Part shown: one piece after another, positions 13,054 through 39,138 of the stretch
How positions within the stretch are numbered: position 1 is the stretch's first letter
How the letters are laid out: each line of letters begins with the position of its first letter
Assembly (NCBI GenBank): GCA_963826305.1
Contig: CAWGWZ010000004.1
Coordinates: forward strand, 123,030 to 163,029
Direction of reading: 5' to 3'
DNA length: 40,000 bases
Source: an uncultured delta proteobacterium
GTDB lineage: Bacteria > Desulfobacterota > BSN033 > UBA1163
Translations under genes and position numbers: made by a program
The notes under the pieces: generated by a model
Told to the model about the DNA's origin: nothing
What the model saw: only the letters and a program-made list of their open reading frames with translations
Database searches by the model: none

Positions 13054-13067
13054 ATAGACATCTCATT

Positions 13068-20712: not shown

Positions 20713-22872
20713 TTATTCATCGAGATAAGGCTGGATTTCGATGAAGTTGAATATCAATTCCTGTCCCACAGGGCCGCCTGACTCTTCGTCATTCCTCCAA
20801 TCTTTCACTGTTAGTCTTGCAGTTGTGCTCTTTGCACGAAATACACGCCAATGGTATTTCATCCAATATGGGTATTTTTGATTGAATTTACCAAGAGCAT
20901 GTGCATAGTTGTTTGGAAAGGTGAATTGAAACGCTTTTTTCTGTCCGGACAATAAGTCCGCATTGTCGAGATGGATCGACAAAGCGTGATCAGCCTTGAC
21001 AGATCTCTCCTGCACCAAATCTTGATAATCCCCTGTGATCATCTTCAAGGAATAGACTTGGCCAGGTGTGAGGTCTTTTATCTCCTGGCTAAACATATTT
21101 GGTTTTTTCGCACTACGCTTCATCCAAAGGAAAGTATCTCCATCATTGGTACGCGGATATCGTCCCTGGAGCCAACTATAGCCGTTGTAAGTGAGTGGTT
21201 TTGCACTCTCTTCCTCAGCAGGCAAGACAGTCCACGCATTTTCCCCCACGGCAAAATCTGGATTCTCGATGTGTGTCAGCTTATAAGGATCTTTGGCTAA
21301 TGGCTCAGTATTACCTTCGATACAATAGTGGCGATACAGACGACCTATCCACCTAATCGTCTCCTCGTCACAGTATGAGCTATGATATTCCTGGATTCCG
21401 CCGAGCCCAAAGAAGGCCGGATGGGTTGCTAAAAAGCGAAACTGCATGTCCATATACACTTTGAAATTAACGGTCGGGTCGGTATTAAGACTTTCGGTAG
21501 GTTGAGACATACATCCCAAGGCTATGACCATCCGACGCGTCGAGCCTGGAAGGTTATTTTCCCATCGACCCATCTCTTTCAGGAGACTTAGCTTGATGAA
21601 TGCCATAGCCTTTTCTTCTGTGGGCTGTTCAGTGAGATATCGTTCTCGGACTATATACCCTCCCTTTTCAATACAGGCCTTTAGGAATTCCGTAGATCGG
21701 TCTCCCCCGTTAAATGGACCCCCATAATAAGGCATAAAAGACTTTCCTTTGAATTTTGAATTGGAGTAAATCCGCTCCACCGCCTCTCGATAGAGGTCAT
21801 AGACTGTATCGTCTCCGCCTATAAATTCGTCAACGATGATGCCGTCCATGAGTGGATGTCGAAGACCGATGTAATTTGACCAGTACTTGTAGACTTCATC
21901 TGCAGCTGCCACACCGGTTTTCGTGAGTTTCGGCAAATAGGCGATCGACATCCATTTCTTCCCCCCATTTTTCCACTCTTTCAAATGCGGCGGCTCCGAC
22001 CCTTCGCTAATCATTACGTTCACATTGGGCAATATATCTTTGGACAAAAATTTCCAGTCATAAGGCCCGTAAGGGTGTATATGGGGATGCAGGTCATAAA
22101 AAGCATACTGTAGCATCGGAATAGACCGGACAATAAGATTCTTAAGGAAAGCTTTGCCCTTCCGTCCAACAAAGATGGTGTGTTTACCAGCAGGTAGAAA
22201 TCGCATAGCTTCGAGAGAAGGCTCGGTGCTATCTGAATGGACGATTACCGCTTCCTCCCTTGAATTTGAGTCTACCGAAACCCAGACTTCGCCGCCTTTC
22301 GTAATTTCAACTTCGGTTTTAACGTATACCCACCTATCGTAGGGATTATTGAAGACATACCTGTTGCGTATGCTTAAGGCCGCATTTTCCTGAACATTGA
22401 GCAGCTCCCAGACGAAGTTGTTCAAGATTTTAACGCCTTTGAAAATCTCCGGTTGGCCTTTCCAGAAAAAAGTTGATGTGGCTTCCTCACCAATAACCGT
22501 GCCTTCCGATCCTATTACATTGACATGAACAGCATACTCTCCCGCTGGAAGAGTTTTCATATCAAATTCAACATCTGTCTCGTTAGATACATCTGAAATA
22601 ATTTTCTGAATAATTGGCTTATTAGATTCGGAGAGCAATAGGTCTGCTCGAACCTTGCTTCCTAAGGGCATTGATTGTATTAGACGATTATCTATGGTTA
22701 GTGTAATCTTTCCTGGATCAGGATAAGTATGTATCTCCAGACTACCGGAATACTTAATACCAGCTTTTGGGCTCACAAAAGCACATGACAAAAACAAGGA
22801 GAAAATGATTAACTGAAGCCCCACACTTAGAATCACAAAAACCCCCTGGGGAACGTTGTTCAATTCTTTCAC
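20713..22872 (-). CDS. Exported 719-aa protein of unknown function (possible polysaccharide-active enzyme with a C-terminal beta-sandwich/CBM-like domain)
   Basis: Long intact ORF with an N-terminal hydrophobic signal-like segment (VFVILSVGLQLIIFSLFLSCAFV). The C-terminal NPDFAVGENAWTV..LTVKDW..ELIFNFIEI looks like a jelly-roll module. No catalytic family recognised. The first ~10 codons (GTG start) are built from a Box B repeat, so the true start may be GTG 22836. Confidence 0.7.
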   Translation of the reverse strand: MKELNNVPQGVFVILSVGLQLIIFSLFLSCAFVSPKAGIKYSGSLEIHTYPDPGKITLTIDNRLIQSMPLGSKVRADLLLSESNKPIIQKIISDVSNETDVEFDMKTLPAGEYAVHVNVIGSEGTVIGEEATSTFFWKGQPEIFKGVKILNNFVWELLNVQENAALSIRNRYVFNNPYDRWVYVKTEVEITKGGEVWVSVDSNSREEAVIVHSDSTEPSLEAMRFLPAGKHTIFVGRKGKAFLKNLIVRSIPMLQYAFYDLHPHIHPYGPYDWKFLSKDILPNVNVMISEGSEPPHLKEWKNGGKKWMSIAYLPKLTKTGVAAADEVYKYWSNYIGLRHPLMDGIIVDEFIGGDDTVYDLYREAVERIYSNSKFKGKSFMPYYGGPFNGGDRSTEFLKACIEKGGYIVRERYLTEQPTEEKAMAFIKLSLLKEMGRWENNLPGSTRRMVIALGCMSQPTESLNTDPTVNFKVYMDMQFRFLATHPAFFGLGGIQEYHSSYCDEETIRWIGRLYRHYCIEGNTEPLAKDPYKLTHIENPDFAVGENAWTVLPAEEESAKPLTYNGYSWLQGRYPRTNDGDTFLWMKRSAKKPNMFSQEIKDLTPGQVYSLKMITGDYQDLVQERSVKADHALSIHLDNADLLSGQKKAFQFTFPNNYAHALGKFNQKYPYWMKYHWRVFRAKSTTARLTVKDWRNDEESGGPVGQELIFNFIEIQPYLDE

Positions 22873-22877
22873 TTTTT
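22846..22877. repeat. Box B copy (overlaps the annotated start of the 719-aa ORF)
   Basis: Plus strand CTGGGGAACGTTGTTCAATTCTTTCACTTTTT. Gene-sense consensus is about GAAAAGTGAAnGAnTnnAACAACGTCCCCnnGG. Confidence 0.8.
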
Positions 22878-22926
22878 TTATTCAGTGGAGATCATAGAGA
22901 AGTCATTCGCCGCAAGACGCGAAGGA

Positions 22927-22975
22927 GGCTCCGGGGTCAAACCTTCAAAATTCAATTTCAATCGTTGGCAGCGTT
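22927..22975. repeat. Box A copy 1
   Basis: GGCTCCGGGGTCAAACCTTCAAAATTCAATTTCAATCGTTGGCAGCGTT, about 55 nt upstream (gene sense) of the 719-aa ORF. Confidence 0.9.
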
Positions 22976-23104
22976 CAGATCCTTAGGATCGTTGATACCG
23001 TTGGAAGAAGCTGAAAGCACAAAGCAGCTTAGTCAATGAGTCATTCAGTTATTAGGTCATTGGGTCAACTATAAGCTCAAAGTTCAAAGCTGAATGCTCA
23101 AAGG
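22976..23104. repeat. Composite short-tandem-repeat block (9-mers ..CGTT, 8-mers GTCATTGR, 7-mers AGCTSAA)
   Basis: ..cagatccttaggatcgttgataccgttggaagaagctgaaagc..agtcaatgagtcattcag..ggtcattgggtcaac..agctcaaagttcaaagctgaatgctcaaagg. Confidence 0.85.
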
Positions 23105-23187
23105 TGGAAGCGTACATGCGTTGAAGCGTTAACATGTCTATAGATCGTAGTGTCATAAGGTATATTGGGTCTATTGCATGGTAAGGC

Positions 23188-23454
23188 TTATTTATAAACA
23201 TCCCCTCTGAAGTCTATTCTTTCAACAGATATTACTCTTTCATTCTTATTCACCTCAAATATTATCCTTAACTTTCCTTTCCTCAGCCTGTAATAGCCTT
23301 CCCAATCTCCTACAAGTTTCTTTAAATCAATATTAACACTGCCCCCTTTCATTTTCATTAAAAACTTCTTTAATTCTTCTCTTACCTCGACGTGAACATC
23401 TTGCCTATCAATAAATTTTTCAGCGTCCCTGGAGTATTCAATTCTCCATTTCAT
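23188..23454 (-). CDS. RelE/ParE-superfamily type II toxin
   Basis: 88 aa: MKWRIEYSRDAEKFIDRQD..LVGDWEGYYRLRKGKLRIIFEVNKNERVISVERIDFRGDVYK. This is the typical RelE/ParE fold pattern. 4-nt overlap with the upstream small gene. Confidence 0.85.
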   Translation of the reverse strand: MKWRIEYSRDAEKFIDRQDVHVEVREELKKFLMKMKGGSVNIDLKKLVGDWEGYYRLRKGKLRIIFEVNKNERVISVERIDFRGDVYK

Positions 23455-23651
23455 ACTTCTACGGTCTCGCTATAAGCTGCTTCTTCTCCTGTCGATGGTT
23501 TACCATATAGCTTCTCAATATCCTCCATCTCCTCCTTAGAAATCGAAGGTATACTTCTCAGAAAGAATTCCAATGTTTCCTCCTCCAAGACTTCCCTTAC
23601 AGCTTTTTTTATAAGACCGTAAAGTTCATTTTTATCAATGATTACTTCCAC
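23451..23651 (-). CDS. Putative antitoxin of the RelE/ParE-like toxin (GTG start)
   Basis: 66-aa acidic ORF directly upstream of and overlapping the toxin, with AGGAG 6-8 nt upstream of the GTG. Assigned by position only. Confidence 0.6.
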   Translation of the reverse strand: MEVIIDKNELYGLIKKAVREVLEEETLEFFLRSIPSISKEEMEDIEKLYGKPSTGEEAAYSETVEV

Positions 23652-23682
23652 TTCTTTTCTCCTTTCGACTATTCATGTAGCT

Positions 23683-23691
23683 ATTATAACA
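23683..23691 (-). promoter_or_regulatory. Extended -10 candidate (TGTTATAAT) for the RelE/ParE cassette
   Basis: Gene sense TGTTATAAT, about 30 nt upstream of GTG 23651 and about 28 nt downstream of Box A copy 2. No good -35. Confidence 0.35.
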
Positions 23692-23718
23692 CAAGTCAAA
23701 ATAAAGATATAGACTAGA

Positions 23719-23765
23719 GACTCCGGGGTCACCTTCAAAATTCAATTTCAATCGTTGGCAGCGTT
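23719..23765. repeat. Box A copy 2
   Basis: GACTCCGGGGTCACCTTCAAAATTCAATTTCAATCGTTGGCAGCGTT, between the vapC stop and the RelE-cassette start. Confidence 0.9.
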
Positions 23766-23800
23766 TGGATCCTTCGCATAGAAGGGAGCTTCGCTGGAAT

Positions 23801-23850
23801 GTCATTGGTTTGTTTGGTTTTCCTGGTTTCTTTGGTTTGTTTAGTTTCTT
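23801..23850. repeat. Nonamer array (NNNNNNGTT family)
   Basis: gtcattggtt tgtttggtt ttcctggtt tctttggtt tgtttagtt. Confidence 0.85.
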
Positions 23851-23878
23851 TTATTAAATGGCGTCAGACAAGACACTT

Positions 23879-24313
23879 TCAACGACTTAATCCGAAATCA
23901 GCCAGTAATCGAATGGAAGGTTTCTGTTTAGTGCTCTTTTTAATTCTTCTATAAAATCTCTTATCTGCTGTTATAAACTCAAAACTTAATTCTTCGGCCA
24001 GCGCAAGATAAGTAGCGTCATAACAGGTTAAATCAAATTCTTTTGCGAATTCAACAGTTTTACCTAACAAAGTAACGGTTGGAGTAATGATTTCTATCCC
24101 CATACCAAATAGCGTGTCCAATGCTTCCTGAATTTCCTCTATCGAAAAACTCGCGTTGTAACGTAAGGCATTTGCAATTTCAAAGAGCAAGAGATCAGGA
24201 ACAACAATCTCTCTTTCTCCAGCATAGAACTCTTCGCGAAGTTTGAGTGCTCGACCGCTGTCCGCTTCATTTACAAACCATTTCAAAACCACGGATGCGT
24301 CTAAAACACTCAT
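23879..24313 (-). CDS. vapC: PIN-domain ribonuclease toxin VapC
   Basis: MSVLDASVVLKWF (first acidic D), ..PDLLLFEIANAL.., ..CYDATYLALAEE.., ..ITADKRF. These are the PIN acidic residues. The track ORF starts at 24355, but Met 24313 gives the classic ATGA overlap with the antitoxin stop. Confidence 0.9.
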   Translation of the reverse strand: MSVLDASVVLKWFVNEADSGRALKLREEFYAGEREIVVPDLLLFEIANALRYNASFSIEEIQEALDTLFGMGIEIITPTVTLLGKTVEFAKEFDLTCYDATYLALAEELSFEFITADKRFYRRIKKSTKQKPSIRLLADFGLSR

Positions 24314-24507
24314 CGAGCCTCTCTCCATTTCCTGATCGTGGAGACACTGTCCCAACCCTTTGGAACGGGATGATTCTCTCTGATCTTATCCTGTGTCTCT
24401 ATGGCAACCTTAATCTTGTCTTTATCCCGTAACCTTGCCCCTATGAGATAACTTATTCGTTTCTCAACAAGGCTCACTTTATCATAGTTATCAATAATCT
24501 TATCCAT
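24310..24507 (-). CDS. VapB-type antitoxin (small, C-terminal ..IRKWREAR)
   Basis: 65-aa ORF overlapping vapC by 4 nt. Assigned by position and size. Confidence 0.65.
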   Translation of the reverse strand: MDKIIDNYDKVSLVEKRISYLIGARLRDKDKIKVAIETQDKIRENHPVPKGWDSVSTIRKWREAR

Positions 24508-24572
24508 TTCTTACCCCCCCCGCTCTTTACCTGGACTTCACCATAACTGCCTTTGGACTAGTTTCTTTTGTT

Positions 24573-24601
24573 ATTTTATCATTTCAGATATTCACTAGCA
24601 A
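24573..24601 (-). promoter_or_regulatory. Sigma70-like promoter candidate for the vapBC cassette
   Basis: Gene sense TTGCTA-N17-TAAAAT (-35 at 24601-24596, -10 at 24578-24573), about 65 nt upstream of ATG 24507 and downstream of Box A copy 3. Confidence 0.45.
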
Positions 24602-24639
24602 CGGAATTATTAAACCAGTTTCGTGCGTTTTTGTTCAGA

Positions 24640-24686
24640 GGCTCCGGGGTCACCTTCAAAATTCAATTTCAATCGTTGGCAGCGTT
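24640..24686. repeat. Box A copy 3
   Basis: GGCTCCGGGGTCACCTTCAAAATTCAATTTCAATCGTTGGCAGCGTT, between the hicA stop and the vapB start. Confidence 0.9.
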
Positions 24687-24775
24687 CAGATCGGTAATAC
24701 CGTTGGAAGAAGCTGAAAGCTCAAAGCTGAAAGCGTTGATCGTAAAGAACGTTTGGATCGTTAACAACCTCTATA
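24687..24775. repeat. Composite 9-mer/7-mer block
   Basis: cagatcggtaataccgttggaagaagctgaaagctcaaagctgaaagcgttgatcgtaaagaacgtttggatcgttaac. Confidence 0.85.
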
Positions 24776-24788
24776 AGCTCGGCTTTGT

Positions 24789-25030
24789 CTACAATTTTCT
24801 CAGGATCTTGACAAACTCCACCTTTGTCAGTCCCATTTGCTCAATGATAGAGAGCAAAGTGCCTCTCGGAATTTCATCTCTATGAGGAATAATGACAAGG
24901 TGGGTCTTCTCCTCCGTCTTCTTTACAAACGCGGAATGGCTTCCCTTGCCCCCTTCGGAGCAGGTTCAAAACCCAAATATCTCAGGATTTTTATGACCTT
25001 TTTTGAAGAAAGTATAGGAAGTTTCGGCAT
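24789..25030 (-). pseudogene. hicA: HicA-family toxin, frameshifted (1 nt short in the G-run near 24943-24945)
   Basis: Hand translation from ATG 25030 gives MPKLPILSSKKVIKILRYLGFEPAPKGAREAIPRL*. Shifting one base restores ..GARGSHSAFVKKTEEKTHLVIIPHRDEIPRGTLLSIIEQMGLTKVEFVKILRKL* (GSH motif), ending at 24789. Confidence 0.75.
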
Positions 25031-25269
25031 TAAAGGACCAGTTCAAAGCTACCAGTAAACTTCTCCCTCACTGTAAGGCTCTCTTCTATGTCTTCCATTA
25101 AGTCCAGTTCTTTGGCGTTCTCAATATAAAGTTCTACTGCCTCTTTGAGATTGGCCACGGCTTCTTCAAATGTATCTCCACAACTGGCCACACCCAACTC
25201 AGGGCATTTAGATACAAAACCCCTTCTTTCTTTCCAGACAACTGCCGTATACTCAAGAATTTTCATCAT
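25030..25269 (-). CDS. hicB: HicB-family antitoxin (UPF0150-like)
   Basis: 79 aa: YTAVVWKERRGFVSKCPELGVASCGDTFEEAVANLKEAVELYIE. Its stop overlaps the hicA ATG by 1 nt. Confidence 0.85.
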   Translation of the reverse strand: MMKILEYTAVVWKERRGFVSKCPELGVASCGDTFEEAVANLKEAVELYIENAKELDLMEDIEESLTVREKFTGSFELVL

Positions 25270-25383
25270 TCACTCCTCTCTTCTCGTCTATAATTCTGCC
25301 AAACTCGTCCGCTTTTAACAAGCCTATCACTGCATCTGCCCATGGGCACGTCGCTGCGAAGCTGGCCCCAGTGCAATATCTAT

Positions 25384-25415
25384 CCGAGGGGACGTTGTTC
25401 ACTCCTTCACTTTTC
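25384..25415. repeat. Box B copy
   Basis: CCGAGGGGACGTTGTTCACTCCTTCACTTTTC, upstream (gene sense) of hicB 25269. Confidence 0.8.
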
Positions 25416-25589
25416 TTCTTTCCGTTGAGAGCGTTGGCCATAAGCTCGAAGCTGAAAGCTCAAAGGTGAGACTTCAAACCCTTTCAAAATCGTTTTGATC
25501 TATACCTCATTGCTTTAGCATTCCCCTAATCGTCCCTTGTTTAAGATCCTTGTTTCCTTAGTCAGGAATTACACTCCCTCTTCCTGTCA

Positions 25590-25622
25590 CTGAGGGGACG
25601 TTGCTTACTTCGTTCACTTTTC
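25590..25622. repeat. Box B copy
   Basis: CTGAGGGGACGTTGCTTACTTCGTTCACTTTTC, in the gene-less junction 25441-25715. Confidence 0.8.
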
Positions 25623-25715
25623 TGATTCCGTTTGGATCGTTGGGATCGTTAAGGACGTTTGGAGCGTAAATACTTAATGTGTTATAGCATGGATCATGGA
25701 AATATCAATATCATC

Positions 25716-25940
25716 TTAGGCATAGGCGAGTCTACCTTTTGGCTGTGGTATTTCTCTTCCCAAACTCAGTGCAGTATCTATCCACTCCGAAATAACAACT
25801 TCCGCATTTTTTATTGCTTCCTCATAGGTCAGTCCATCAGCCATACATCCAGGGAGCTCAGGAACTTCAATGATATACCGACCGTCTTCTTCGCTCCAAA
25901 AAATAATGAGTTCATACTTGTACATTTTAAACTCCTTCAT
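25716..25940 (-). CDS. hicB: HicB-family antitoxin
   Basis: YKYELIIFWSEEDGRYIIEVPELPGCMADGLTYEEAIKNAEVVISEWI. The likely true start is ATG 25925, 1 nt after the hicA stop. Confidence 0.85.
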   Translation of the reverse strand: MKEFKMYKYELIIFWSEEDGRYIIEVPELPGCMADGLTYEEAIKNAEVVISEWIDTALSLGREIPQPKGRLAYA

Positions 25941-26178
25941 GCAGCTTGTATTTAAAGATGATTACTCTAACCTGCTTGACCTGATAAGCTTTTGCTTTTC
26001 CGTCTTTAAGTGGTTGCAAGTTAATAATTTCTTCAATTCCCTCTCGGTAGTGGATATGATGGTCTCCCTTCATTCTTACAGAAAACCCAAAATCGTTCAA
26101 GAGCTTTGTGAGATCTTGAAACCGGATATTTTTATCAGCCAACCCACTAAGAACTCTATTTAACGTTTTCTTATCCAT
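25927..26178 (-). CDS. hicA: HicA-family toxin
   Basis: 83 aa: ..IRFQDLTKLLNDFGFSVRMKGDHHIHYREG..INLQPLKDGKAKAYQVKQV. YcfA/HicA-like pattern, immediately upstream of a hicB. Confidence 0.8.
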   Translation of the reverse strand: MDKKTLNRVLSGLADKNIRFQDLTKLLNDFGFSVRMKGDHHIHYREGIEEIINLQPLKDGKAKAYQVKQVRVIIFKYKLHEGV

Positions 26179-26202
26179 TATTTAATCCAGAAGAAAATAG
26201 AT

Positions 26203-26236
26203 CCAAGGGGACGTTGATGAAAATTGTGACTTTTCC
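26203..26236. repeat. Box B copy
   Basis: CCAAGGGGACGTTGATGAAAATTGTGACTTTTCC, just upstream (gene sense) of hicA 26178. Confidence 0.75.
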
Positions 26237-26277
26237 AAAAGGACCCAAACAGCGGGTCACTAAACCATAACGGGACG

Positions 26278-26311
26278 CCATGGGGAACGTTGTTGAAAAA
26301 TGACACTTTCC
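26278..26311. repeat. Box B copy
   Basis: CCATGGGGAACGTTGTTGAAAAATGACACTTTCC, in tandem with the 26203 copy. Confidence 0.75.
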
Positions 26312-26315
26312 ATCT

Positions 26316-26518
26316 TGGCTTATTGGGTTGATCTGGTTTATTTGGTTTATCTGGTTTAGAGCGTTGAGATCGTTGAGAACATTGGCCATGAGGTGAAAGC
26401 GAAAAGCATCAGAGCGTTGATGCGTAGGAGCGTAAATGCGATAAAACCCTTGATCGTTCGGATCATTGAGATTGTTGAGATCCTTGAGTTCGTTGAAAAC
26501 GTTTTGAACGTTTGGGAT
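26316..26518. repeat. Long degenerate nonamer array (..GTT every 9 nt)
   Basis: tattgggtt gatctggtt tatttggtt tatctggtt tagagcgtt gagatcgtt gagaacatt ... gatcgttcggatcattgagattgttgagatccttgagttcgttgaaaacgttttgaacgtttggg. It generates the spurious ORF 26171..26530 (..LNDLNALNQINQINQIN..). Confidence 0.9.
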
Positions 26519-26567
26519 GAAAATGACCATTCCCTCAAAACCTGAGGGTATAGCGCCTACCGAAAGA

Positions 26568-26798
26568 TTAAAGTCTTTCCCATTCCTCCAAGGGAATCTT
26601 CTTTTTCAGTCCGAGTTCAATTTCCTTGAGAAGCATTTTAATCTGTGGAATGGAATATTCGGTATTATGGGGCAGGGTCAGTGTAAATGTTCCGTAACGC
26701 ATGTAAAAGTGACGCCCGCCAGGTTCGGGTGAACTAAACCCGAGTTTCTTCAATTTCTTTATAAGATCTCTCCGCTTGCATGGTGCCCATCTACCCAT
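26568..26798 (-). CDS. hicA: HicA-family toxin
   Basis: 76 aa: KRRDLIKKLKKLGFSSPEPGGRHFYMRYGTFTLTLPHNTEYSIPQIKMLLKEI. 8-nt overlap with the upstream hicB-like gene. Confidence 0.85.
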   Translation of the reverse strand: MGRWAPCKRRDLIKKLKKLGFSSPEPGGRHFYMRYGTFTLTLPHNTEYSIPQIKMLLKEIELGLKKKIPLEEWERL

Positions 26799-27054
26799 GA
26801 ACGGTTGCCTCAGCGGGAGTAGGCATTTTCTTATTCAGATTGATTCCACCTATGACAGGCAATTTATCCCCATGTCTTATCTTCACAATCAGCCATCCTT
26901 CAAGTACCGACCTTAATTCTTCCTGACACTGATAAAGTGTTTCTCCAAATCCGATAACGCCAGGACATTGGGGAATGTTTCCAGAATAAGTACCATCCTC
27001 TAATTTTTCATACTCTGCTTTACTCATTGCCTTATCGATATATTCAAGAAGCAT
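26791..27054 (-). CDS. hicB: HicB-like antitoxin
   Basis: 87 aa: ..YSGNIPQCPGVIGFGETLYQCQEELRSVLEGWL. AAAGGAGG lies 8 nt upstream of the ATG. Confidence 0.8.
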   Translation of the reverse strand: MLLEYIDKAMSKAEYEKLEDGTYSGNIPQCPGVIGFGETLYQCQEELRSVLEGWLIVKIRHGDKLPVIGGINLNKKMPTPAEATVHG

Positions 27055-27103
27055 ATTGACGCCTCCTTTACCAAACCGTTGGAAGATTCCCCAACTTCAA
27101 TTT

Positions 27104-27112
27104 ATTATAACA
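27104..27112 (-). promoter_or_regulatory. Extended -10 candidate (TGTTATAAT) for the hicBA cassette
   Basis: An identical TGTTATAAT nonamer about 50 nt upstream of ATG 27054, downstream of Box A copy 4 and Box B. Confidence 0.35.
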
Positions 27113-27144
27113 CCTCTCCTCCACGAACCAAAACCCAAGCCGGC

Positions 27145-27178
27145 CCTGGAGGGAGGTAGTTGAATCCTTTCGCTTTTC
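27145..27178. repeat. Box B copy (diverged)
   Basis: CCTGGAGGGAGGTAGTTGAATCCTTTCGCTTTTC, between Box A copy 4 and the hicB promoter-like TGTTATAAT. Confidence 0.6.
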
Positions 27179-27258
27179 TCTTTCCGTTCGGCCCGTTGGG
27201 AACGTTTAGATCGTTAATCTCATTTATTTCGTTGATTTCGTCTACCTCGTCTATCATA
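27179..27258. repeat. Nonamer array
   Basis: tttccgttcggcccgttgggaacgtttagatcgttaatctcatttatttcgttgatttcgtctacctcgtc. It underlies the spurious ORF 27105..27299 (DEINEINEINDLN). Confidence 0.85.
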
Positions 27259-27264
27259 TTCGGA

Positions 27265-27313
27265 GGCTCCGGGGTTAAACCTTCAAAATTCAATTTCAAT
27301 CGTTGGCAGCGTT
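27265..27313. repeat. Box A copy 4
   Basis: GGCTCCGGGGTTAAACCTTCAAAATTCAATTTCAATCGTTGGCAGCGTT, between the DUF5615 stop and the hicB start. Confidence 0.9.
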
Positions 27314-27413
27314 TGGATCGCTAATACCGTTGGAAGAAACTGAAAGCATAAAGCTGAAAGCTCAAAGTGGATTAATAAAGAATGGTTGCTTAGCTCAGAC
27401 ACCTGAGTACAAC

Positions 27414-27767
27414 TTATTTCCAGGTACTCAAATATTCAAGCCGATTTTTCATGTCATGGGAAGTCAGAGAGAAGTATAACCTCATCAGTCTACGCAAAAC
27501 TATTCCTACTGGCAATTGGTCTGAGAGAATGATCCCTCCATGAAATCTTTCTGCGCTCATCCATCCATGATGAATCCGAGCAAAGTGTCGCTTATTATAT
27601 GAGAACAATGATCGTCTGGCTTCGGCTGCAAACATAAGCTGACCGGAATCCGTAAGACCTATATTCCCGGCTTCTTGGGTTGTGAGAACATCAACCCCTC
27701 TTGCTCTTAACGCTTCGGCAAGCGCTAATTGAATATCTTCGTCGAGGTAGAGAGAAATGTTAGCCAA
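27414..27767 (-). CDS. DUF5615-family PIN-like putative toxin
   Basis: 117 aa: ISLYLDEDIQLALAEALRARGVDVLTTQEAG..SDQ. Directly abuts the DUF433 gene with no gap, the usual DUF433/DUF5615 pairing. Confidence 0.8.
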   Translation of the reverse strand: MANISLYLDEDIQLALAEALRARGVDVLTTQEAGNIGLTDSGQLMFAAEARRSLFSYNKRHFARIHHGWMSAERFHGGIILSDQLPVGIVLRRLMRLYFSLTSHDMKNRLEYLSTWK

Positions 27768-28064
27768 TCAGTATCTTCCACCCGGAAAATTCTTTGATAC
27801 AGCCTCTTCTCTATCTCTTTCAAGCTCCCGGTCTATGACTTCTTTATGATCGAAATAATAAGCCAGCGCATCAAAAATCTGCGCCAGACTGAGGTGAGGA
27901 AGTTCCCTCCGAATTTCCTCCGCCGTCAACCCCATAAGATAATACCCAGCTATATTGCCAACCGAAACTCTGGTCCCCTTAATGACCGGACTACCTCCAC
28001 AAATTTCCTTGTTCACCGCTATATGAAAATGATCGGTCGTCTTTCGGCCCAAAGCTCCCTTCAT
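27768..28064 (-). CDS. DUF433-domain protein (putative antitoxin partner)
   Basis: 98 aa: ..EICGGSPVIKGTRVSVGNIAGYYLMGLTAEEIRRELPHLSLAQIFDALAYY, the characteristic DUF433 core. Confidence 0.85.
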   Translation of the reverse strand: MKGALGRKTTDHFHIAVNKEICGGSPVIKGTRVSVGNIAGYYLMGLTAEEIRRELPHLSLAQIFDALAYYFDHKEVIDRELERDREEAVSKNFPGGRY

Positions 28065-28152
28065 AGACCAACTCCTTCTTTCCTTATTTGAATTTTAGGA
28101 TACCATGGATAACCAAGTTAATCAAGTAATGCTCTAATAGTAAATTTCTCGG

Positions 28153-28239
28153 GTAGAGTAGAGAACTGGCGTAGTGGCTAACGCTCTATCTCCAGCTCCC
28201 CCTCGTCAAACCGTACGTTCAGTTTTCCCGAATACGGCT
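28153..28239 (-). ncRNA. Group II intron domains V and VI (ribozyme catalytic core and branch-site helix)
   Basis: On the minus strand, AAGCCGUAUUCGGGAAAACUGAACGUACGGUUU has the AGC triad, a 2-nt bulge and a GAAA-type loop. It is followed by GAGGGGGAGCUGG...CCAGUUCUCUACUCUAC, which forms a stem with a bulged A. Confidence 0.8.
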
Positions 28240-28245
28240 TTCCGA

Positions 28246-29574
28246 TCATCTTCGTACAGAGGCTTTCGCAGTCTGAGTCCATGGAGCAGTGGTTGGCACC
28301 TTGTAAAGATGCAGATTGTCGTAGAGGTACTGATTTGGATACTGACAATAGCCTCTGTTTTTCTTCGCCTGCTTCCGTCTCAGATAGATGCGGACTCTCT
28401 CTTCCAGAAACCGTTTGACCATGGACAGGTTCCGGCTACAGTTCCCATAGTAAAAGTAACCGACCCATCCCCTTACTGCCTCATTCAATTTCTGGATGAT
28501 CACCTCTTTAGGTAACCTAAGTGTTCTCCGACAGGTTAAAGCCTTTATCTCCGCCTGGATCTGCGCCATGGCTTTCTTTGAGGGCCTGATCAAAGGAAAC
28601 TTCTTCCCTGTCCTGGGACTCTTTGCCATTTCCACGGTGAATCCAAGGAAGTCAAACCGCTCCCTCCAGGTGTTCACCACTCTCGTCTTTTCCTCATTTA
28701 GGTTTAGTCCCAGTTTTCCCAATGTGGCTCCGGTCCCCTTCAAGATCCTCTCGGCGTTTCCGCGACACATCACCACGAAATCGTCTGCGTACCGAATCAG
28801 TCTGGCCTCCATCCTCTCCTCAACCTTCTTCGCCTTCCATAATTTGTCCAGTACGTTAAGATAGATGTTGGCCAGCAGCGGTGATATCACTCCTCCCTGC
28901 GGGGTCCCCCTTGGATTCCCTATGGCTCTACTCTTCCCATCCTCTCCCTCTTCGACCACTGGCGCCTTCAACCACCGCTTGATGAGCCGAAGGATATGCT
29001 TGTCCACGACCCGCTTGGCCACTAACGCCAGTAGCTTATCGTGAGGAATGGTATCAAAATATTTCGAGATGTCAGCATCGATTACCTGATTCTTCCCCAT
29101 GCGAAGCTGTAAGGTAAGGTCATCCATCGCCTGATGGGCATCCCGCTTCGGCCTAAACCCATAGGAATTGTCCTCAAAGTCCGCCTCAAAGATCGGTTCG
29201 ATGACGATCTTCACCGCCATCTGCACCACCCGATCCTTAATCGTCGGTATTCCCAAGGGCCTTCGGCTTCCATCCGACTTCGGAATGTTCACCCTCCTCA
29301 CAGGCATCGGCTTATACACCTTCCCCCTTAGTTCCTCTGCCATCTGTTCAAGGTATCTTTCCACTCCCCCTTGTCTCTTCTCTATGCCTTCAAAGCTCTC
29401 CCCGTCTACTCCCGGTGCTCCTTTGTTGGCTCTCACAAGGCGATAAGCGTGACTCAGGATGTCTCGCCGATATACCTTGTCATAGAGAAGATAGAACCGG
29501 TATTCCTTCTCTTGCTTGGCCTTCCGGTATAGTCTCCTCTGAAGTTCCCGAACCTTTTCTGGAGTTTCAAGCAT
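28246..29574 (-). CDS. Group II intron reverse transcriptase/maturase (no D/En domain)
   Basis: 442 aa with [65 protein letters not shown] (YADD), and maturase X region [11 protein letters not shown]. Confidence 0.95.
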
Positions 29575-30087
29575 CCCGCAATCTCCTGGCCCTCCCCTCT
29601 TCAGAAACTGATGAAAGTATTGCCCCTTCCCTCTCCTAAGGTTCTGCTCTCCTTAGGATTCAAACGGTACTCCGGGCAACTCCGACTCCCTCACAGACCG
29701 AGTGAAATTTCGTCTCCTTATATCCACCCGTTGCTCTCCTGTATAGCATCTGAAAGGGCCTCCCGTGCTATCCCACATGACTTCCCCTGCGTGTCACCCC
29801 TGCTACCCCGGAAGTCCATCTGTCGGTTCTGGCAGTTTTCGTTAGGACAGATGTCCCAGCCTTCCCCAAACGTCCAAAGGGTCGGCAACTTCGTTCTCAA
29901 TTACGAGGCTACCTATAGGTTCGCTTGCGCTGCAACCCGCAGGATTGCTCAACTCACTCATTGAGCCTTCGTCAGGGAACTCAATGCTTCGGGTTACCCC
30001 TAACATCTCCCTCCAGCTACATGGGCGAACTGCCCAATTCCCATGGCCGGACTTTAACCGGCAAGTCATGCGTTGTACACGGCATAC

Positions 30088-30112
30088 GGACGGGGTTGAA
30101 TCTTTCCACTTG
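30088..30112. repeat. Box B copy, 5' portion, interrupted by the group II intron
   Basis: Gene sense AAGTGGAAAGATTCAACCCCGTCC|intron. After conceptual splicing to CCGAGAAA (28152 downward) the CGTCCCC core of Box B is restored. Confidence 0.65.
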
Positions 30113-30148
30113 TCTCGTTTATTTTGTCTATCACCCCTGTGAAAGGGA

Positions 30149-30262
30149 GAATGTCAAATGTGAAATGTTGAGAGCGTTGAGCTCGTTAATACCGTTGAGA
30201 CCGTTGAGTTCGTTGGGATCGTTGATTGAGTTTGTTGCATTGATAGCGTTCATCGTGTATAT
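30149..30262. repeat. Heptamer (AATGTNA) then nonamer array, flanking the intron 5' exon
   Basis: gaatgtcaaatgtgaaatgttg agagcgtt gagctcgtt aataccgtt gagaccgtt gagttcgtt gggatcgtt gattgagtt tgttgcatt gatagcgtt. It underlies the spurious ORF 30131..30334. Confidence 0.9.
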
Positions 30263-30370
30263 GCGAAAATGCGTCCAAGCGTCGCTGAGTCGATGATCCA
30301 CTGCGGAATGCAGAATGCGTAACAAAACACTCAAAAAGATGGGATAAATAATCTGGCAACATTCAAGAGG

Positions 30371-30637
30371 TTATACCTTGTAAACATTATCATGATGATC
30401 AAAATCAAGCAGCGTCACTATTTTTCTTTCTACATCGATCTCGTAAACTAAAACAAGGGAACCACTAATATGAACCCTGCGCTTATTTTGTAAGGGTTTT
30501 CTTAACGACTTAAATCGATAAGGATCTTCAAGAATATCTCCCACCTTTCTTTCAATTAACCGAAGCATCTCCTTGTCTTTCTTCTGGAGCTTCTTAAATT
30601 TCTTATCCAGTTTTTCTTTAATAGCAAGTCTATACAC
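30371..30637 (-). CDS. RelE/StbE-family type II toxin (mRNA interferase)
   Basis: 88 aa: ..ILEDPYRFKSLRKPLQNKRRVHISGSLVLVYEIDVERKIVTLLDFDHHDNVYK. 1-nt overlap with the upstream small gene. Confidence 0.85.
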   Translation of the reverse strand: MYRLAIKEKLDKKFKKLQKKDKEMLRLIERKVGDILEDPYRFKSLRKPLQNKRRVHISGSLVLVYEIDVERKIVTLLDFDHHDNVYKV

Positions 30638-30825
30638 TATTTTAAGCCGTATCTTTTGCCGAAGTCTTCAACCATGATTGATTTCTCGAGGTCAATATCT
30701 CGCATCCGTAAAATAAAATCATCGCGCAACTCAGGTTCCTCCATAAGACTTTTTTTGATCTCACCCACGTCCCGCTGCAAATCGACTACCTTTTTATAAA
30801 TGGTTTCCAAAGTAATGCTCTTCAT
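30637..30825 (-). CDS. Putative antitoxin of the RelE-like toxin
   Basis: 62-aa charged helical ORF directly upstream, with GGAGGATGA upstream of the ATG. Assigned by position only. Confidence 0.6.
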   Translation of the reverse strand: MKSITLETIYKKVVDLQRDVGEIKKSLMEEPELRDDFILRMRDIDLEKSIMVEDFGKRYGLK

Positions 30826-30947
30826 CGATTCATCCTCCTATACCCATTCCGTCAGTGTATCGAATATATCCTTTTTAGTGATCTCGGCCATCACTCGCCT
30901 CACTGTGTTGGGCTAATGTACCGCAACTCATCAGGTCTATCCAGTAC

Positions 30948-30980
30948 CTCACGGCACGTTGTTCGCTTCTCCCACTCTTC
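30948..30980. repeat. Box B copy (diverged)
   Basis: CTCACGGCACGTTGTTCGCTTCTCCCACTCTTC, upstream (gene sense) of the 30825 cassette. Confidence 0.55.
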
Positions 30981-31066
30981 TCCGGTTAGATCGTTAAGAT
31001 CGTTGAAACTCCTGGGGGACGGTGCAAATGAAAAATGTACAATGTGAAAGCGGGATAATATTTTGG

Positions 31067-31507
31067 CTATTTTAGGGGATTGATGGTTTCAAACCCTATA
31101 GCACTTACAACATCGCAAAGAATGTCATCGGAAGCTACAAATCTCCAGTCTCTTTCTGCAATCAAGCTAAACGTTCCTATTTGAATCGCATCAAGAGTCC
31201 TCAATCGTTTTGTTTTACCAAATCGCTGCAATAAATCTTCTGCCTCTCCAAGAATGGCGTGCCCCAGAGGTTCAACATTAAAAGAGCGAATCTGTTCTTC
31301 AAATCCAATCATGGCTTTTCGCAACTGTTCCTCATTGATTTCTTGATTCCTTAACCTTCGAAATAGGGTGCTGAGAAATTCAGTCTTAGAAAGTTCTGAA
31401 ATCCAAATTTGATTATCCTCTGAAAGGATGAGATCTGTAACCAGTGGAGATCCTTTTTCTTCATGGAAAAACTTTACAAGGGCTGATGTATCAAAAAATA
31501 GGATCAT
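31067..31507 (-). CDS. vapC: PIN-domain toxin VapC
   Basis: MILFFDTSALVKFF.., ..ISELSKTEFLS.., ..LRTLDAIQIG.., ..VASDDIL. These are the PIN acidic residues. ATGA overlap with the upstream gene. Confidence 0.9.
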   Translation of the reverse strand: MILFFDTSALVKFFHEEKGSPLVTDLILSEDNQIWISELSKTEFLSTLFRRLRNQEINEEQLRKAMIGFEEQIRSFNVEPLGHAILGEAEDLLQRFGKTKRLRTLDAIQIGTFSLIAERDWRFVASDDILCDVVSAIGFETINPLK

Positions 31508-31725
31508 CCTCGGTCCTCTCTAAGAGAGAGAATGTCTTCACTCAACGATCCTTTACATGATTTCAATGCCTCCCGCACTCTGACATAGGGTGGAGTTATT
31601 TCTCCTTTTGTTTTTTTATCCAAATCCCGTTTCAAGGAGAGGATGAGGTCATATACTTTTAAAAGATCATCGGGTTTTAATCCTTCCAGTTCTTTTATGG
31701 TCTTATCTTTCATTTTCATATTCAA
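31504..31725 (-). CDS. Putative VapB-type antitoxin
   Basis: 73-aa ORF overlapping vapC by 4 nt, with GGAGAG upstream of the ATG. Assigned by position. Confidence 0.6.
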   Translation of the reverse strand: MNMKMKDKTIKELEGLKPDDLLKVYDLILSLKRDLDKKTKGEITPPYVRVREALKSCKGSLSEDILSLREDRG

Positions 31726-31850
31726 CTCTCCTAAATTCGATTAGAGACGTACAAATATTCTATCCCATATCCTTAGAATATTGTCAAATTGGTCGGATTT
31801 GTTGCCTATGCTCGTCACACAGAGGACGCTGGCTCTAAAACAACTTGCCT

Positions 31851-32062
31851 CGTTTGAACCGTTAAGAGCGTTCAGGTCGTTTGGAACAAGCTGAAAGTTC
31901 AAAGCTCAAGGCTCAAAGGGGATTAAGGAAATCTGGGAGACCTTGTTGAATTCTTTCGCTATTTTCTTCCTGTTAGAGCCGTTGAGTTCGTTCAGACCCC
32001 TAATACCGTTGGGATCGTTGAGAACGCTAACCGTTTAGGTCGTTCGGATCGGTGCTCGTTAA
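31851..32062. repeat. Composite 9-mer/7-mer blocks flanking a Box B copy
   Basis: cgtttgaaccgttaagagcgttcaggtcgtttggaacaagctgaaagttcaaagctcaaggctcaaagg ... gttagagccgttgagttcgttcagacccctaataccgttgggatcgttgagaacgctaaccgtttaggtcgttcggatcgg. Confidence 0.85.
31933..31966. repeat. Box B copy (diverged)
   Basis: CTGGGAGACCTTGTTGAATTCTTTCGCTATTTTC, between the fcl stop and the first TA cassette. Confidence 0.6.
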
Positions 32063-32085
32063 CTTCATCGGAACATCGCATACCG

Positions 32086-33030
32086 TCATCCGTAGTTTTT
32101 AAGAAAATCTTGATAAGTTAAGCGAAGGCCATCCTTAAGTGAAGTTTTGTACTTCCATCCCATGCCGCGGAGAAATGAAACATCCAGCAGCTTCTGGGGC
32201 ATGCCGTCCGGCTTCGTGGTATCCCACCTTATTTCGGCCTGGTAACCTACCACCTCTGCTACCATTTTAGTCAGTTCACGAATGGTGATGTCCTCACCCG
32301 TGCCAATATTTATAAATTCGTGAGGAATGAGTTGTGAAGCGTCAACTCTTTCCATAAGGAAAACGCAAGCGTCAGCCATATCCTCGCTGTACATGAACTC
32401 CCGCCGGGGGCTGCCAGTGCCCCACGCTTCCACGAATGGACGTCCATCAGTCTTTGCTTCATGGAAACGTCTTATCAAACCAGGTAGGACGTGGGAGTTC
32501 ATGGGGTCATAGTTGTCGTTGGGTCCATAAAGATCGGTTGGCATGACTGACACGAAGTTGGTTCCATATTGACGGTTATACGATTGACATAATTTTATGC
32601 CGGCAATCTTGGCGATTGCATAGGGCTCGTTGGTAGGTTCAAGGGACCCCGAAAGAAGGTATTCCTCTCTCATGGGTTGGGGGGCGAGCCTGGGATAGAT
32701 GCAGGAACTGCCTAGAAACAGCAACTTTTCCACCCCAAACAAGTAGGCACTATGCACTACATTATTCTGAATCATTAAGTTGTTGTAAATAAAGTCAGCA
32801 GGATAGGTGCTGTTGGCATAAATCCCTCCCACCTTGGCCGCAGCCAGAAAGACGTATTCCGGTTTCTCACGCTGGAATAACTCGCTTACGTCTTTCTGAA
32901 TTTCGAGATCTAATTCCTGGTCAGTCCGTAGTATAAAGTTGCCATACCCAAGTGACTGGAGCCTTCGGAGAATGGCGGAGCCAGCCAAACCCATATGACC
33001 AGCTATGTAGATTTTGGAAGATTTGTCCAT
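32086..33030 (-). CDS. fcl: GDP-L-fucose synthase (GDP-4-keto-6-deoxy-D-mannose 3,5-epimerase/4-reductase)
   Basis: 314 aa collinear with E. coli Fcl/WcaG as I remember it: [86 protein letters not shown]. Confidence 0.95.
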
Positions 33031-33102: not shown

Positions 33103-33534
33103 TTATTCCGCCCCTCTTCTGCTACCTCTAAGTGAGTTCATCAAACCGTTAAGTTTTCGGTCAATTTGCTCCCCCCTTGCCCTTACTTCCAAAGAATCTT
33201 CTTCGGAGAATAATTTTTTCCTATGAAAAACTTCATTAAGAGTGATCGTTTCGTAAAGGGAGCCTTGGGATATGCTAAGGAATTGAATAAACTCTTTTTT
33301 ATATTGCCGGCCTTTCCCCTCCGCAATGTTTTGGCACACCGACACAACAGCACCTTCCATCTGGGATACCAAGCGAGCGTGCTTACTTAAGGGGATTGGT
33401 TCAAGCAGTCCTAGGACGTAGTCCGCCATATCAACAGCCATTTGATACACATCGAGCTTTTCAAAGGGAAACACGTAAGTTGATCCAGGATTGAGGGCTG
33501 AGGTTCTTTCTGGAATGGTATTATCTCTTTTCAT
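33103..33534 (-). CDS. Four-helix-bundle protein (23S rRNA intervening-sequence protein family; same fold family as DGR Avd)
   Basis: 143 aa: FEKLDVYQMAVDMADYV.., ..NIAEGKGRQYKKEFIQFLSISQGSLYETITL.., the family signature. Sits between gmd and fcl. Confidence 0.85.
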   Translation of the reverse strand: MKRDNTIPERTSALNPGSTYVFPFEKLDVYQMAVDMADYVLGLLEPIPLSKHARLVSQMEGAVVSVCQNIAEGKGRQYKKEFIQFLSISQGSLYETITLNEVFHRKKLFSEEDSLEVRARGEQIDRKLNGLMNSLRGSRRGAE

Positions 33535-33555: not shown

Positions 33556-34680
<1,125 letters not shown>

Positions 34681-34693
34681 ATCAAAACCTCTC

Positions 34694-34890
34694 GGTAATT
34701 GGTAATTAAGTTATTGGGCCATTGGGTCAACTATAAGCTCAAAGCTGAAGGCTCAAGGCTGAAGTTCGGGGCTGAAGGCTCAAAGCGAATAAAACAGTCA
34801 TTAGATCAATAGGTCATTGGGTCAATCGTAGCTCAAGGCTCAAAGCTGAAAGCTCGAAGCTCAAAGTGTAAATGGTCATTGAGTCATTGC
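34694..34890. repeat. About 200-bp spacer made almost entirely of 8-mers (GTCATTGR) and 7-mers (AGCTSAA/GGCTSAA)
   Basis: ggtaattggtaattaagttattgggccattgggtcaactataagctcaaagctgaaggctcaaggctgaag..ggtcattgggtcaatcgtagctcaaggctcaaagctgaaagctcgaagctcaaag..ggtcattgagtcattgc. Confidence 0.9.
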
Positions 34891-34942
34891 GCCGTTACGT
34901 CTCAGACTCGTCAGACCGTGTAAAACATTAAAACCCTATATG

Positions 34943-36073: not shown

Positions 36074-36311
36074 AAAAGCTCCTTTGTCATCATTAAGTCA
36101 ATGGATCATTAAAGGCGGAAAGAAGGGCGTATATTAATCTTCTGCGCTAAAGAAGCGAATCAGAGAAGGTATAAAATAAAAGGCAGCAAACAGACCTAAT
36201 AGGATGGCGAAAAATTAATTTCCAGTATTTGCGCCAGAAGTTTTTGAATCGATGTCTGACTCTTCTCGAAAAGAGATTTTTTCTTCTTTTTTATAGCCTG
36301 ACTTGGAGAGT

Positions 36312-36467
36312 GTCATTGAGTCATTGAGTCAATAACAAGCTCAAAGTAAATTAAGCTCAAAGCTGAAAGCTCAAAGCAAAACCCTAAACATAGCTGAAAG
36401 GTCAAAGCTCAAAGCAAAGCGATAAATCCTCAGCTCAAAGCTGAAAGCTAACGAGTCATTGAGTTCA
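36312..36467. repeat. 8-mer/7-mer composite block
   Basis: gtcattgagtcattgagtcaataacaagctcaaag..agctcaaagctgaaagctcaaagc..tagctgaaaggtcaaagctcaaagcaaagc..cagctcaaagctgaaagcta..gtcattgag. Confidence 0.85.
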
Positions 36468-36740
36468 TGACACGGTGATAGAGAGTCTGGAAAAGGGCAG
36501 GCTGACCCCGTGCAAACTTTGGCGATTTCGGCTAAACGTCTTCTTGAATTGTGCCAGATGGCTGGGCAAAATAGCCTTAAACAAAGGAAATAGGTCATTG
36601 TGTCACTAAGTCATTGGTTATTTACAATATAAAATAATTGAATAACCTGATTGTCTGATCACTTAACGATTTATCCGAACTGCTAACTTAATGACTCAAT
36701 AACTCAATAACTCAGTAACCAATCACTTTATTCTCACTCA

Positions 36741-37261: not shown

Positions 37262-37378
37262 TTAGTTCGGGTGGTTCATTAAGTTACGATCGTTTATTCC
37301 TTTTTCTAAGTCTCTTCGGTTTCTCTGGTCCATTTGGGTTGTCTGGTTTCTCCCGCTTCTTTCGTCCGTTTCGTTCCT
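37262..37378. repeat. Nonamer array forming the 3' tail of the ligase-like pseudogene
   Basis: ..cggtttctc tggtccatt tgggttgtc tggtttctc ccgcttctt tcgtccgtt tcgttcc... Read as the charged tail ..KERNGRKKREKPDNPNGPEKPKR... Confidence 0.75.
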
Positions 37379-38393: not shown

Positions 38394-38430
38394 AAGCTGA
38401 AAGGTCAAAGGTGAAAGGTCAAAGGTCAAG
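38394..38430. repeat. Heptamer array inside the ligase-like pseudogene
   Basis: agctgaa aggtcaa aggtgaa aggtcaa aggtcaa gg, read in gene sense as ..LTFDLSPLTFQLSL... Confidence 0.85.
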
Positions 38431-39135: not shown

Positions 39136-39138
39136 AGA

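Follow-up and report, generated by a model that had tools for sequence, protein, structure and literature searches.

What is a block of about 48 nucleotides doing when it recurs, nearly unchanged, at several junctions of a toxin-antitoxin (TA) cassette array, while the DNA along one of its sides is different in every copy? The question is posed by a stretch of 40,000 nt from an uncultured delta proteobacterium (GTDB lineage Bacteria; Desulfobacterota; BSN033; UBA1163), namely positions 123,030 to 163,029 of the forward strand of contig CAWGWZ010000004.1 in assembly GCA_963826305.1, referred to here as the window. The block, termed Box A, occurs four times in it. The genes of the region all lie on the − strand, and "gene sense" denotes the reverse complement of Box A as written (Box A'). 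A preliminary description of this DNA had left three readings side by side: a protein-binding or recombination site, the 5' end of a leader RNA, or a small RNA. The comparisons presented here suggest that Box A may act at the DNA level, as the junction and recombination module within a new mosaic repeat lying between cassettes, a reading drawn from sequence and held tentatively, at somewhat less than an even chance.

A core of 35 nt, ACCTTCAAAATTCAATTTCAATCGTTGGCAGCGTT, recurs without change at 22941, 23731, 24652 and 27279, each time on the + strand, against no match in 100 dinucleotide-preserving shuffles. Copy 1 (22927..22975, core 22941-22975) lies 55 nt from the start GTG at 22872 of a 719-aa lipoprotein gene, the first polysaccharide-cluster gene after the array, to which it is directly upstream with a second element, Box B, standing between the two. 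Copy 2 (23719..23765, core 23731-23765), whose arm is the GACTCC variant with a short spacer, is 68 nt upstream of a RelB-like/ParE cassette; copy 3 (24640..24686, core 24652-24686) is 133 nt upstream of a VapB/PIN cassette; and copy 4 (27265..27313, core 27279-27313) is 211 nt upstream of a HicB/HicA cassette, from which it is separated by further 9-mers, a Box B-like module and a terminator-like hairpin. Intervals of 790, 921 and 2627 nt, with genes inside, separate the copies. The preliminary description had reported these four copies in one orientation, the variants GTCACC / GTCAAACC / GTTAAACC and GGCTCC / GACTCC, three TTGAA heptads in gene sense, and start codons about 55-210 nt away, all of which proved correct. 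The distance to the next start (55-211 nt) is not fixed, nor is that to the upstream stop codon (100-212 nt). In the core, TGA(A/C) recurs four times at intervals of 6-7 nt (in the three TTGAA heptads and in the TGACC that follows). Box A itself has only three to four such units, imperfect ones, and is copied as one fixed 48-nt block. The arm beside the core, GRCTCCGGGGTC, is GC-rich and comes close to the palindrome GACCCC|GGGGTC. The GGAG-N-CTCC partial palindrome noted earlier at this end is present, but it is perfect in just two of the four window copies and in four of all ten copies compared. The final ~14 nt of Box A (TCGTTGGCA GCGTT) already read as two units of the NCGTTNNNN 9-mer array next to it.

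The ten copies comprise the four in the window and six from metagenome contigs, and their alignment defines the box by its borders. To the left, homology ends within a few nucleotides of one edge (gAGGCTCC...) in all 45 copy pairs, and the ten copies carry ten different sequences across this arm-side border. To the right, homology continues for a variable 0-155 nt into common spacer repeats. The earlier statement that the flanks differ completely thus holds for the left side, which is different in every copy, but not for the right, which is shared between copies: the right flanks of copies 3 and 4 are 93% identical across 83 nt, and that of copy 1 equals them apart from additional 9-mer units. 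The nearest gene on the unique side is a TA cassette member in nine of the ten copies, from at least six families (RelB/ParE, VapBC, HicAB, YafQ-type, MazF, DUF4258/MqsA-like and DUF433). Box A marks where the spacer ends and the next cassette starts. Within the block, conservation is uneven, with one difference in 297 cells of the 33-column core and 15 in 144 cells of the 16-column arm (including its 0-or-2-nt spacer), a contrast for which the Fisher p of 3.5e-7 is indicative only, as the copies share ancestry. The preliminary description had concluded that the box is under constraint or recently copied; this is supported and sharpened by the same figures, and uniformly recent copying fails to explain a core so much less diverged than its arm.

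The junctions also differ from contig to contig. Comparison contigs and loci are labelled L001-L005, L025 and L027-L032 in what follows, L005 being a strain 96-97% identical to the window. Three cassettes recur on other contigs at ~99% identity with different neighbours. The VapBC cassette (window 23913-24628) is 99% identical in L004 and L027, which come from two samples, and keeps its downstream spacer and Box A' there; the cassette after it is DUF433, not RelB/ParE, and upstream of it stands a group II intron where the window has Box A copy 3. In L001 the HicB cassette (24716-25315) recurs at 99% identity; Box A' again comes after it, with a different cassette beyond. The DUF433/DUF5615 cassette (27334-28138), 99% identical in L003, is joined there to a different spacer that ends in Box B. 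In L005, the HicAB and RelB/ParE cassettes are both kept and joined directly, Box A being missing upstream of each. The breakpoints cluster in the spacers, often at the edge of a box and not at one fixed base.

Taken as a whole, these observations fit the DNA-level reading best of the three that had been put forward, given the sharp border, the ten different partners and the cassettes rearranged between contigs. It may be proposed that Box A is the conserved end-module, or cap, of a lineage-specific mosaic spacer separating TA cassettes, in which the invariant, unstructured core of 33-35 bp and the variable GC-rich arm would form a sequence-specific site where the spacer stops. Identical cores in direct orientation could then offer portable homology for RecA-type exchange, or a binding site for a putative protein, and through them cassettes and spacers might be joined, swapped, duplicated and deleted. 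We infer that the rearrangements take place on Box A itself, with either plain homology or a dedicated protein at work there. A bolder version, which we regard as improbable, would make the locus an integron-free gene-cassette system in which TA cassettes are assembled, exchanged and lost at box-capped spacers, Box A and Box B serving as alternative, non-palindromic and unstructured sites of ~35 bp for an enzyme encoded elsewhere in the genome; the group II intron that targets Box B would then be a counterpart of the introns that target attC in integrons.

Several observations weigh against the proposal that Box A is a recombination module. The breakpoint of the DUF433/DUF5615 cassette in L003 falls in the 7-mers, not at a box; the L005 strain lacks a segment of ~258 nt that includes Box A copy 4 and is bounded in the window by two 10-nt CTTCCAACGG repeats; and cassette homology begins 4-11 nt past the box edge, at no fixed base. 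Because the breakpoints are off the box or unfixed in this way, general repeat recombination is favoured over precise site-specific exchange. Pfam scans of the larger window open reading frames (ORFs; about 50) detected no integrase, recombinase or transposase, none is present among the annotated L002 ORFs, and Box A stands in only 4 of about 10 window junctions, the others having Box B alone. An invariant stretch is not peculiar to Box A, as the long subfamily of Box B has one of ~28 nt, and an invariant core with variable edges could also arise by gene conversion centred on the block. The Fisher comparison carries limited weight because the Box A copies are not phylogenetically independent. 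Moreover, every copy derives from one of a few metagenome assemblies, in which some of the rearrangements could be chimeric joins at repeats; set against this caveat, the arrangement is the same in L004 and L027, from two samples, and L025 is collinear with the window.

The spacers that Box A caps are themselves mosaics. Their parts are AGCTCAA/AGCTGAA 7-mers, 8-mers of the GTCATTGG type, 9-mers of the GATCGTTGA and TTGGTTTCT types, Box A and Box B, and in gene sense they follow one order: the upstream stop codon, 7-mers, 8-mers, 9-mers, Box A' and/or Box B', and the unique start of the next cassette. The two boxes can co-occur, in either order and at times with a short unique stretch between them. 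On the + strand, the spacer right of copy 1 (22976..23103) holds CGTT-type 9-mers, GTCATTGG-type 8-mers and both 7-mers; a TTGGTTTCT 9-mer array lies right of copy 2 (23805..23851); the spacer right of copy 3 (24687..24770) passes from 9-mer units through a TAATACCGTTGGAAGAAGCTGAAAGC transition module and 7-mers into 9-mers again; that right of copy 4 (27314..27367) repeats this transition module and its 7-mers, at 93% identity to the copy 3 spacer; and a further 9-mer array (27182..27251) runs from a Box B-like module to copy 4. The commonest 9-mer unit contains GATC, of which the spacers have 9.4 per kb against a window average of 4.35 (GATC-rich examples are 26354-26496, 30167-30225 and 31979-32045), and with a GATC every 9 bp any GATC-specific methylase or binding protein would meet clusters of sites there. 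In L004 (836-939), a PIN toxin frame continues into a AAGAAACCA 9-mer array and reaches 167 aa, compared with ~144 aa in the window (23879-23913), so tandem repeats can change the C-termini of cassette proteins. Tandem repeats of 7 and 8 nt also occur outside the TA array (138-325, 34681-34942, 36074-36740, 38393-38572 and 38824-39125), adjoining polysaccharide genes and genes for 23S rRNA intervening-sequence proteins (23S-IVP) and, at 38393-38572, apparently lying within a Wzy-like frame; a 47-nt higher-order repeat spans 38824-39040. These outer repeat regions contain neither Box A nor Box B.

Box B (GGGGACGTTGyTCA..TTCACTTTTC; 22843..22882 on the + strand beside copy 1) is the commoner element, with ~35 copies in ~80 kb (the window, L001-L005 and L025). 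Further window copies lie at 25382-25417, 25589-25627, 26201-26238 (long subfamily, extending to ~26270), 26278-26311, 27145-27183, 30951-30980 and 31935-31964, and one at ~30090-30117 is split by an intron. There are at least four subfamilies, and as with Box A the border toward the next cassette is sharp; the long subfamily measures ~65 nt, its ~28-nt stretch being invariant in seven copies. A duplicated GGGACG ahead of many copies gives a small ACGTCC-loop-GGACGT hairpin. The two boxes were also considered as diverged copies of one module; this was rejected, as their local alignment was no better than that of shuffles (p = 0.08, 0.42).

The intron that splits Box B is a group II intron (28153..30089, − strand) inserted after ..CGTCC, and its reverse transcriptase (RT)/maturase ORF (28246-29574) encodes 442 aa in which Pfam detected no endonuclease domain. 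Other intron sites were found at L002:9720-9845, L025:~12916-14100, L004:1-99 and L027:1-140 and in L031 and L032. In L002 the intron follows GGACGTCC; in L025 it follows ..CAACAACGTCC, as it does in L031 (46% GC) and L032, whose RT homologs are 92% identical. A matching empty Box B site lies near L003:2530. Repeated insertion after the same motif, together with this empty site, suggests that Box B' is the homing site of the intron family. The visible 5' exons are always Box B-like (..ACGTCC) and never Box A.

Against this background, the competing explanations of Box A can be weighed. A small RNA gene or the 5' end of a structured leader would account for a conserved non-coding block upstream of genes; however, this part of the preliminary description is not supported, and it is very improbable. 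Compared with shuffled sequence, neither strand of the four copies shows a more stable fold (RNA parameters, z from -0.55 to +1.71). Rfam, run on 22700-32100 at the gathering threshold and at E <= 5, placed no family at any Box A copy, its matches there being to group II intron models and to two weak sub-threshold ones away from the box. No promoter-like (sigma-70) or intrinsic-terminator-like site overlaps Box A, and no common promoter was seen on either side, the left flank being unique to each copy and the right one made of variable repeats. A 2-nt indel separates arm and core, and the distance to the start codon is unfixed. Because L005 keeps the HicAB and RelB/ParE genes without the box, Box A is dispensable in that strain and is not a required leader for them. 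Coding sequence was rejected separately, as the frames are broken by the 2-nt indel and the core is invariant at every base with no third-position pattern. It is somewhat less improbable, although still doubtful, that Box A' acts on a read-through transcript or on the polymerase, as an insulator, an RNA-processing or Rho-entry site, or an ops/JUMPStart-like reloading site for a NusG paralog, the last of which would let transcription cross the inserted cassettes into the polysaccharide genes downstream. Every copy is co-oriented with the genes, copy 1 directly precedes the first polysaccharide-cluster gene past the array, the array lies between polysaccharide genes of the same strand with a NusG-family gene at 36741-37251, the box is unstructured as expected of an element read single-stranded, and intrinsic terminators between cassettes are few (4 found, 4.3 expected). 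Yet Box A is missing both from the intergenic DNA beside the NusG gene and from the DNA ahead of the remaining polysaccharide genes, the distances to both flanking genes vary, most junctions are without it and L005 is without it at two, and the spacers have no consistent C-over-G bias in gene sense of the Rho-entry kind. The ops motif GGCGGTAGnnTG has two one-mismatch matches in the window (0.92 expected), neither in Box A nor in leader regions, and 33 invariant bases far exceed the 12 nt of the ops element. An integron attC site, the array being a cassette array or an attC cluster without integrase, would be in keeping with promoter-carrying TA cassettes, with a repeated element at their junctions and with a group II intron in a junction element, as two papers describe for attC sites (PMC3001079, PMC7923331); its probability is nonetheless close to nil. 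No pair RYYYAAC...GTTRRRY, 40-160 nt apart and at least 6/7 complementary, was found on either strand of 22700-32100; the box has no hairpin, no consistent inverted partner and no palindromic symmetry, keeps one orientation throughout, and lies in an array with no integrase found and with co-oriented polysaccharide genes on both flanks. Folded RNA and integron site are both rejected as identities of Box A.

Two further alternatives were considered. Box A may have no function of its own and be a frozen heptamer microsatellite (TTGAAAT TGAATTT TGAAGGT GACCCC), spread by spacer duplication and kept uniform through youth or gene conversion; this is unlikely, but its chance is an appreciable one. 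Its units resemble the surrounding 7-, 8- and 9-mers, with the right end itself two 9-mer units; spacer repeats are common in the organism, also beside genes other than TA genes (34681-34942, 36074-36740, 38831-39269); the 96-97% identical strain has no box at two junctions; and an invariant stretch of similar kind is seen in one subfamily of Box B. In addition, the intergenic repeats of a related Brocadiaceae genome are quite different, which suggests that such repeats turn over fast. Simple recent copying does not, however, predict a ~30-fold gap in divergence between core and arm within one 50-nt block, nor does this alternative sit easily with a sharp border that is identical in all copies despite ten partners, or with the restriction of Box A to cassette junctions and its absence from intergenic DNA elsewhere in the window that is also rich in repeats. 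Alternatively, Box A could be the homing or insertion target of a mobile element that is not in the sampled DNA, as Box B is for the intron. Box B is equally conserved on one side and unique on the other, an intron occupies that edge in at least four independent sites, and an empty site is seen in L003; the conserved unstructured stretch of ~33 nt is about as long as the targets recognised by group II intron particles; and the place that Box A holds ahead of VapBC in the window is taken by an intron in L004 and L027. Even so, this seems decidedly improbable: none of the ten copies of Box A is interrupted, the visible intron 5' exons are Box B-like, and the complement of the core occurs in the window, intron included, as chance 10-12-mers only.

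The array itself consists of at least eight small TA cassettes between 23188 and 31725 on the − strand, each self-contained, with two genes and its own promoter-like sequence. They are a ParE/RelB-like cassette (23188-23651), a PIN/VapB cassette (23879-24507), HicB (25030-25269) with no intact HicA ORF downstream (L001 encodes an 80-aa HicA at this place), two HicA/HicB cassettes (25716-26178 and 26568-27054), a DUF5615/DUF433 cassette (27414-28064), and ParE-type (30371-30825) and PIN-type (31067-31725) cassettes whose junctions have Box B alone. The array ends within the window and is embedded in a polysaccharide biosynthesis cluster that flanks it on both sides on the same strand, with glycosyltransferases and flippase-like, Wzy-like and AsnB-like proteins to the left and GDP-fucose and GDP-mannose genes, the NusG paralog (36741-37251) and CpsB to the right. 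The reverse transcriptase of the intron is the only mobility gene seen in the window and L002 ORFs. Genes for 23S-IVP proteins (four-helix-bundle) lie within the polysaccharide cluster at 33103-33534 and 39270-39482, and at L025:563-955; two of them have a common 50-nt stretch at 72% identity. Four genes are split: GDP-mannose dehydratase (33556-34680, also split in L025), the NusG paralog (36741-37251) and the Wzy-like gene (37284-38830), both intact in L025, and HicA (24770-25030), intact in L001. Either genuine pseudogenes or indel errors of the assembly would account for them.

Beyond the window, a 24-mer of the Box A core had no exact match in 185,579 species genomes, nor was a match found in viral contigs or, by blastn, in plasmids. 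The same 24-mer occurs five times on four contigs of metagenome Ga0315282, to which a profile search adds one diverged and one partial copy. The same organism is present, at 96-100% identity, in four more samples; besides Ga0315282, the samples that contain it include JGI Ga0619418, ENA ERZ25039515 and ERZ27247709, and Logan ERR10755944. L029, assembled independently, matches the window at 100% identity; its contig terminates inside Box A copy 1, an assembly break that is expected of a multi-copy repeat. Among the related loci and genomes compared, none outside this organism yielded a diverged Box A. The 719-aa protein next to copy 1 has its best named homolog, 64% identical, in a Candidatus Brocadiaceae bacterium, the other named ones being from Planctomycetota; taken by themselves, these homologs would point to a host probably within Planctomycetota, possibly Brocadiales-like. 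The AsnB-like protein has a best match of 42% identity, with matches spread across many phyla, and so indicates no taxon. L028, which carries an 87% ortholog of the 719-aa protein, has 9-mer repeats and no boxes in the 13 kb compared; there is no TA array at the start of the ortholog, which an epimerase gene overlaps. The longest ORF of the 719-aa lipoprotein begins at the GTG within Box B', whereas the gene caller's start is 22836, and its N-terminal signal-peptide region (window 22790-22872) is wholly unlike that of the ortholog (L028:1154-1225). A Candidatus Brocadiaceae metagenome-assembled genome, L030 (GCA_016844385.1), has intergenic repeats of its own, partly palindromic GTAATCGWG 10-11-mers at 9788-10001 and 13225-13615, in an equivalent polysaccharide cluster where lone TA genes are scattered among the sugar genes.

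If the joining and exchange of TA cassettes do take place at Box A and Box B, the locus would represent, in a little-studied lineage, a cassette platform that operates without the defining features of an integron, namely hairpin attC sites, IntI and attI, and this would bear on how accessory arrays form, why TA genes cluster and where mobile introns find safe landing sites. The recombination-module reading predicts that structural variation from strain to strain concentrates at the boxes. A more modest reading is that of a new mosaic repeat family, with several tandem periods in fixed order, a conserved cap and one sharp border. Should Box A be a passive repeat only, it would still matter in practice, since assemblies of these genomes break at it.

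These data may finally be set beside known classes of repeated element, some of which were tried as assignments and rejected. CRISPR arrays have 23-50-nt repeats with regular spacers, whereas Box A copies are 790, 921 and 2627 nt apart with genes between them. The Xer/dif type (pdif; 28 bp with two 11-bp arms and a 6-bp spacer) was discarded on symmetry alone, the Box A core having no dyad symmetry. A dispersed repeat of the REP/BIME or MITE type was rejected because all ten copies have one orientation, with no inverted copy, hairpin or terminal inverted repeat, although the 7-, 8- and 9-mers and the two boxes do form a mosaic of the REP/BIME kind in varied numbers and orders. The nearest known kinds, BIMEs of enterobacteria, NIMEs/dRS3 of Neisseria and BOX elements of Streptococcus pneumoniae (boxA-boxB(n)-boxC), are palindromic units or have terminal inverted repeats, and fold into hairpins. 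The present repeat shares with them its modular, intergenic and lineage-specific nature, its combination of conserved boxes with variable short units, and its character as a hot spot of rearrangement, but Box A and Box B are non-palindromic, keep one orientation, have one sharp and one fading end, and are specific to TA junctions. JUMPStart/ops elements, the loading sites for RfaH/NusG paralogs of polysaccharide operons, are likewise conserved non-coding elements of ~40 nt, co-oriented with polysaccharide genes and with a NusG paralog in the cluster; Box A differs in having no ops motif, in standing at neither an operon leader nor the NusG gene, and in occurring also on contigs where no polysaccharide gene was seen. 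The integron attC array, near to the present case by position only, offers a parallel in its repeated junction element, its many TA cassettes with changing neighbours and its intron-targeted element: group II introns insert into attC sites according to two reports (PMC3001079, PMC7923331), and the intron in Box B resembles them. In contrast to attC arrays, there are here no R''/R' core sites, imperfect hairpin or IntI, Box A is present at only some junctions, and the breakpoints are unfixed. Finally, TAACTGA direct repeats are described from Beggiatoaceae, cyanobacteria and Bacteroidetes; in the Beggiatoaceae genome studied they lie mostly a few nucleotides upstream of start codons, and they have been proposed as sites of a translational regulator (PMC4679880). 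Like these and the STRR heptamers of cyanobacteria, the arrays flanking Box A are built of tandem 7-nt intergenic units, and the 8-mers TAACTCAA and AGTCATTC AGTTATTA resemble TAACTGA/TCAGTTA. However, those repeats carry no conserved cap, whereas here periods of 7, 8 and 9 follow one another in fixed order downstream of the genes and end in a 48-nt box.

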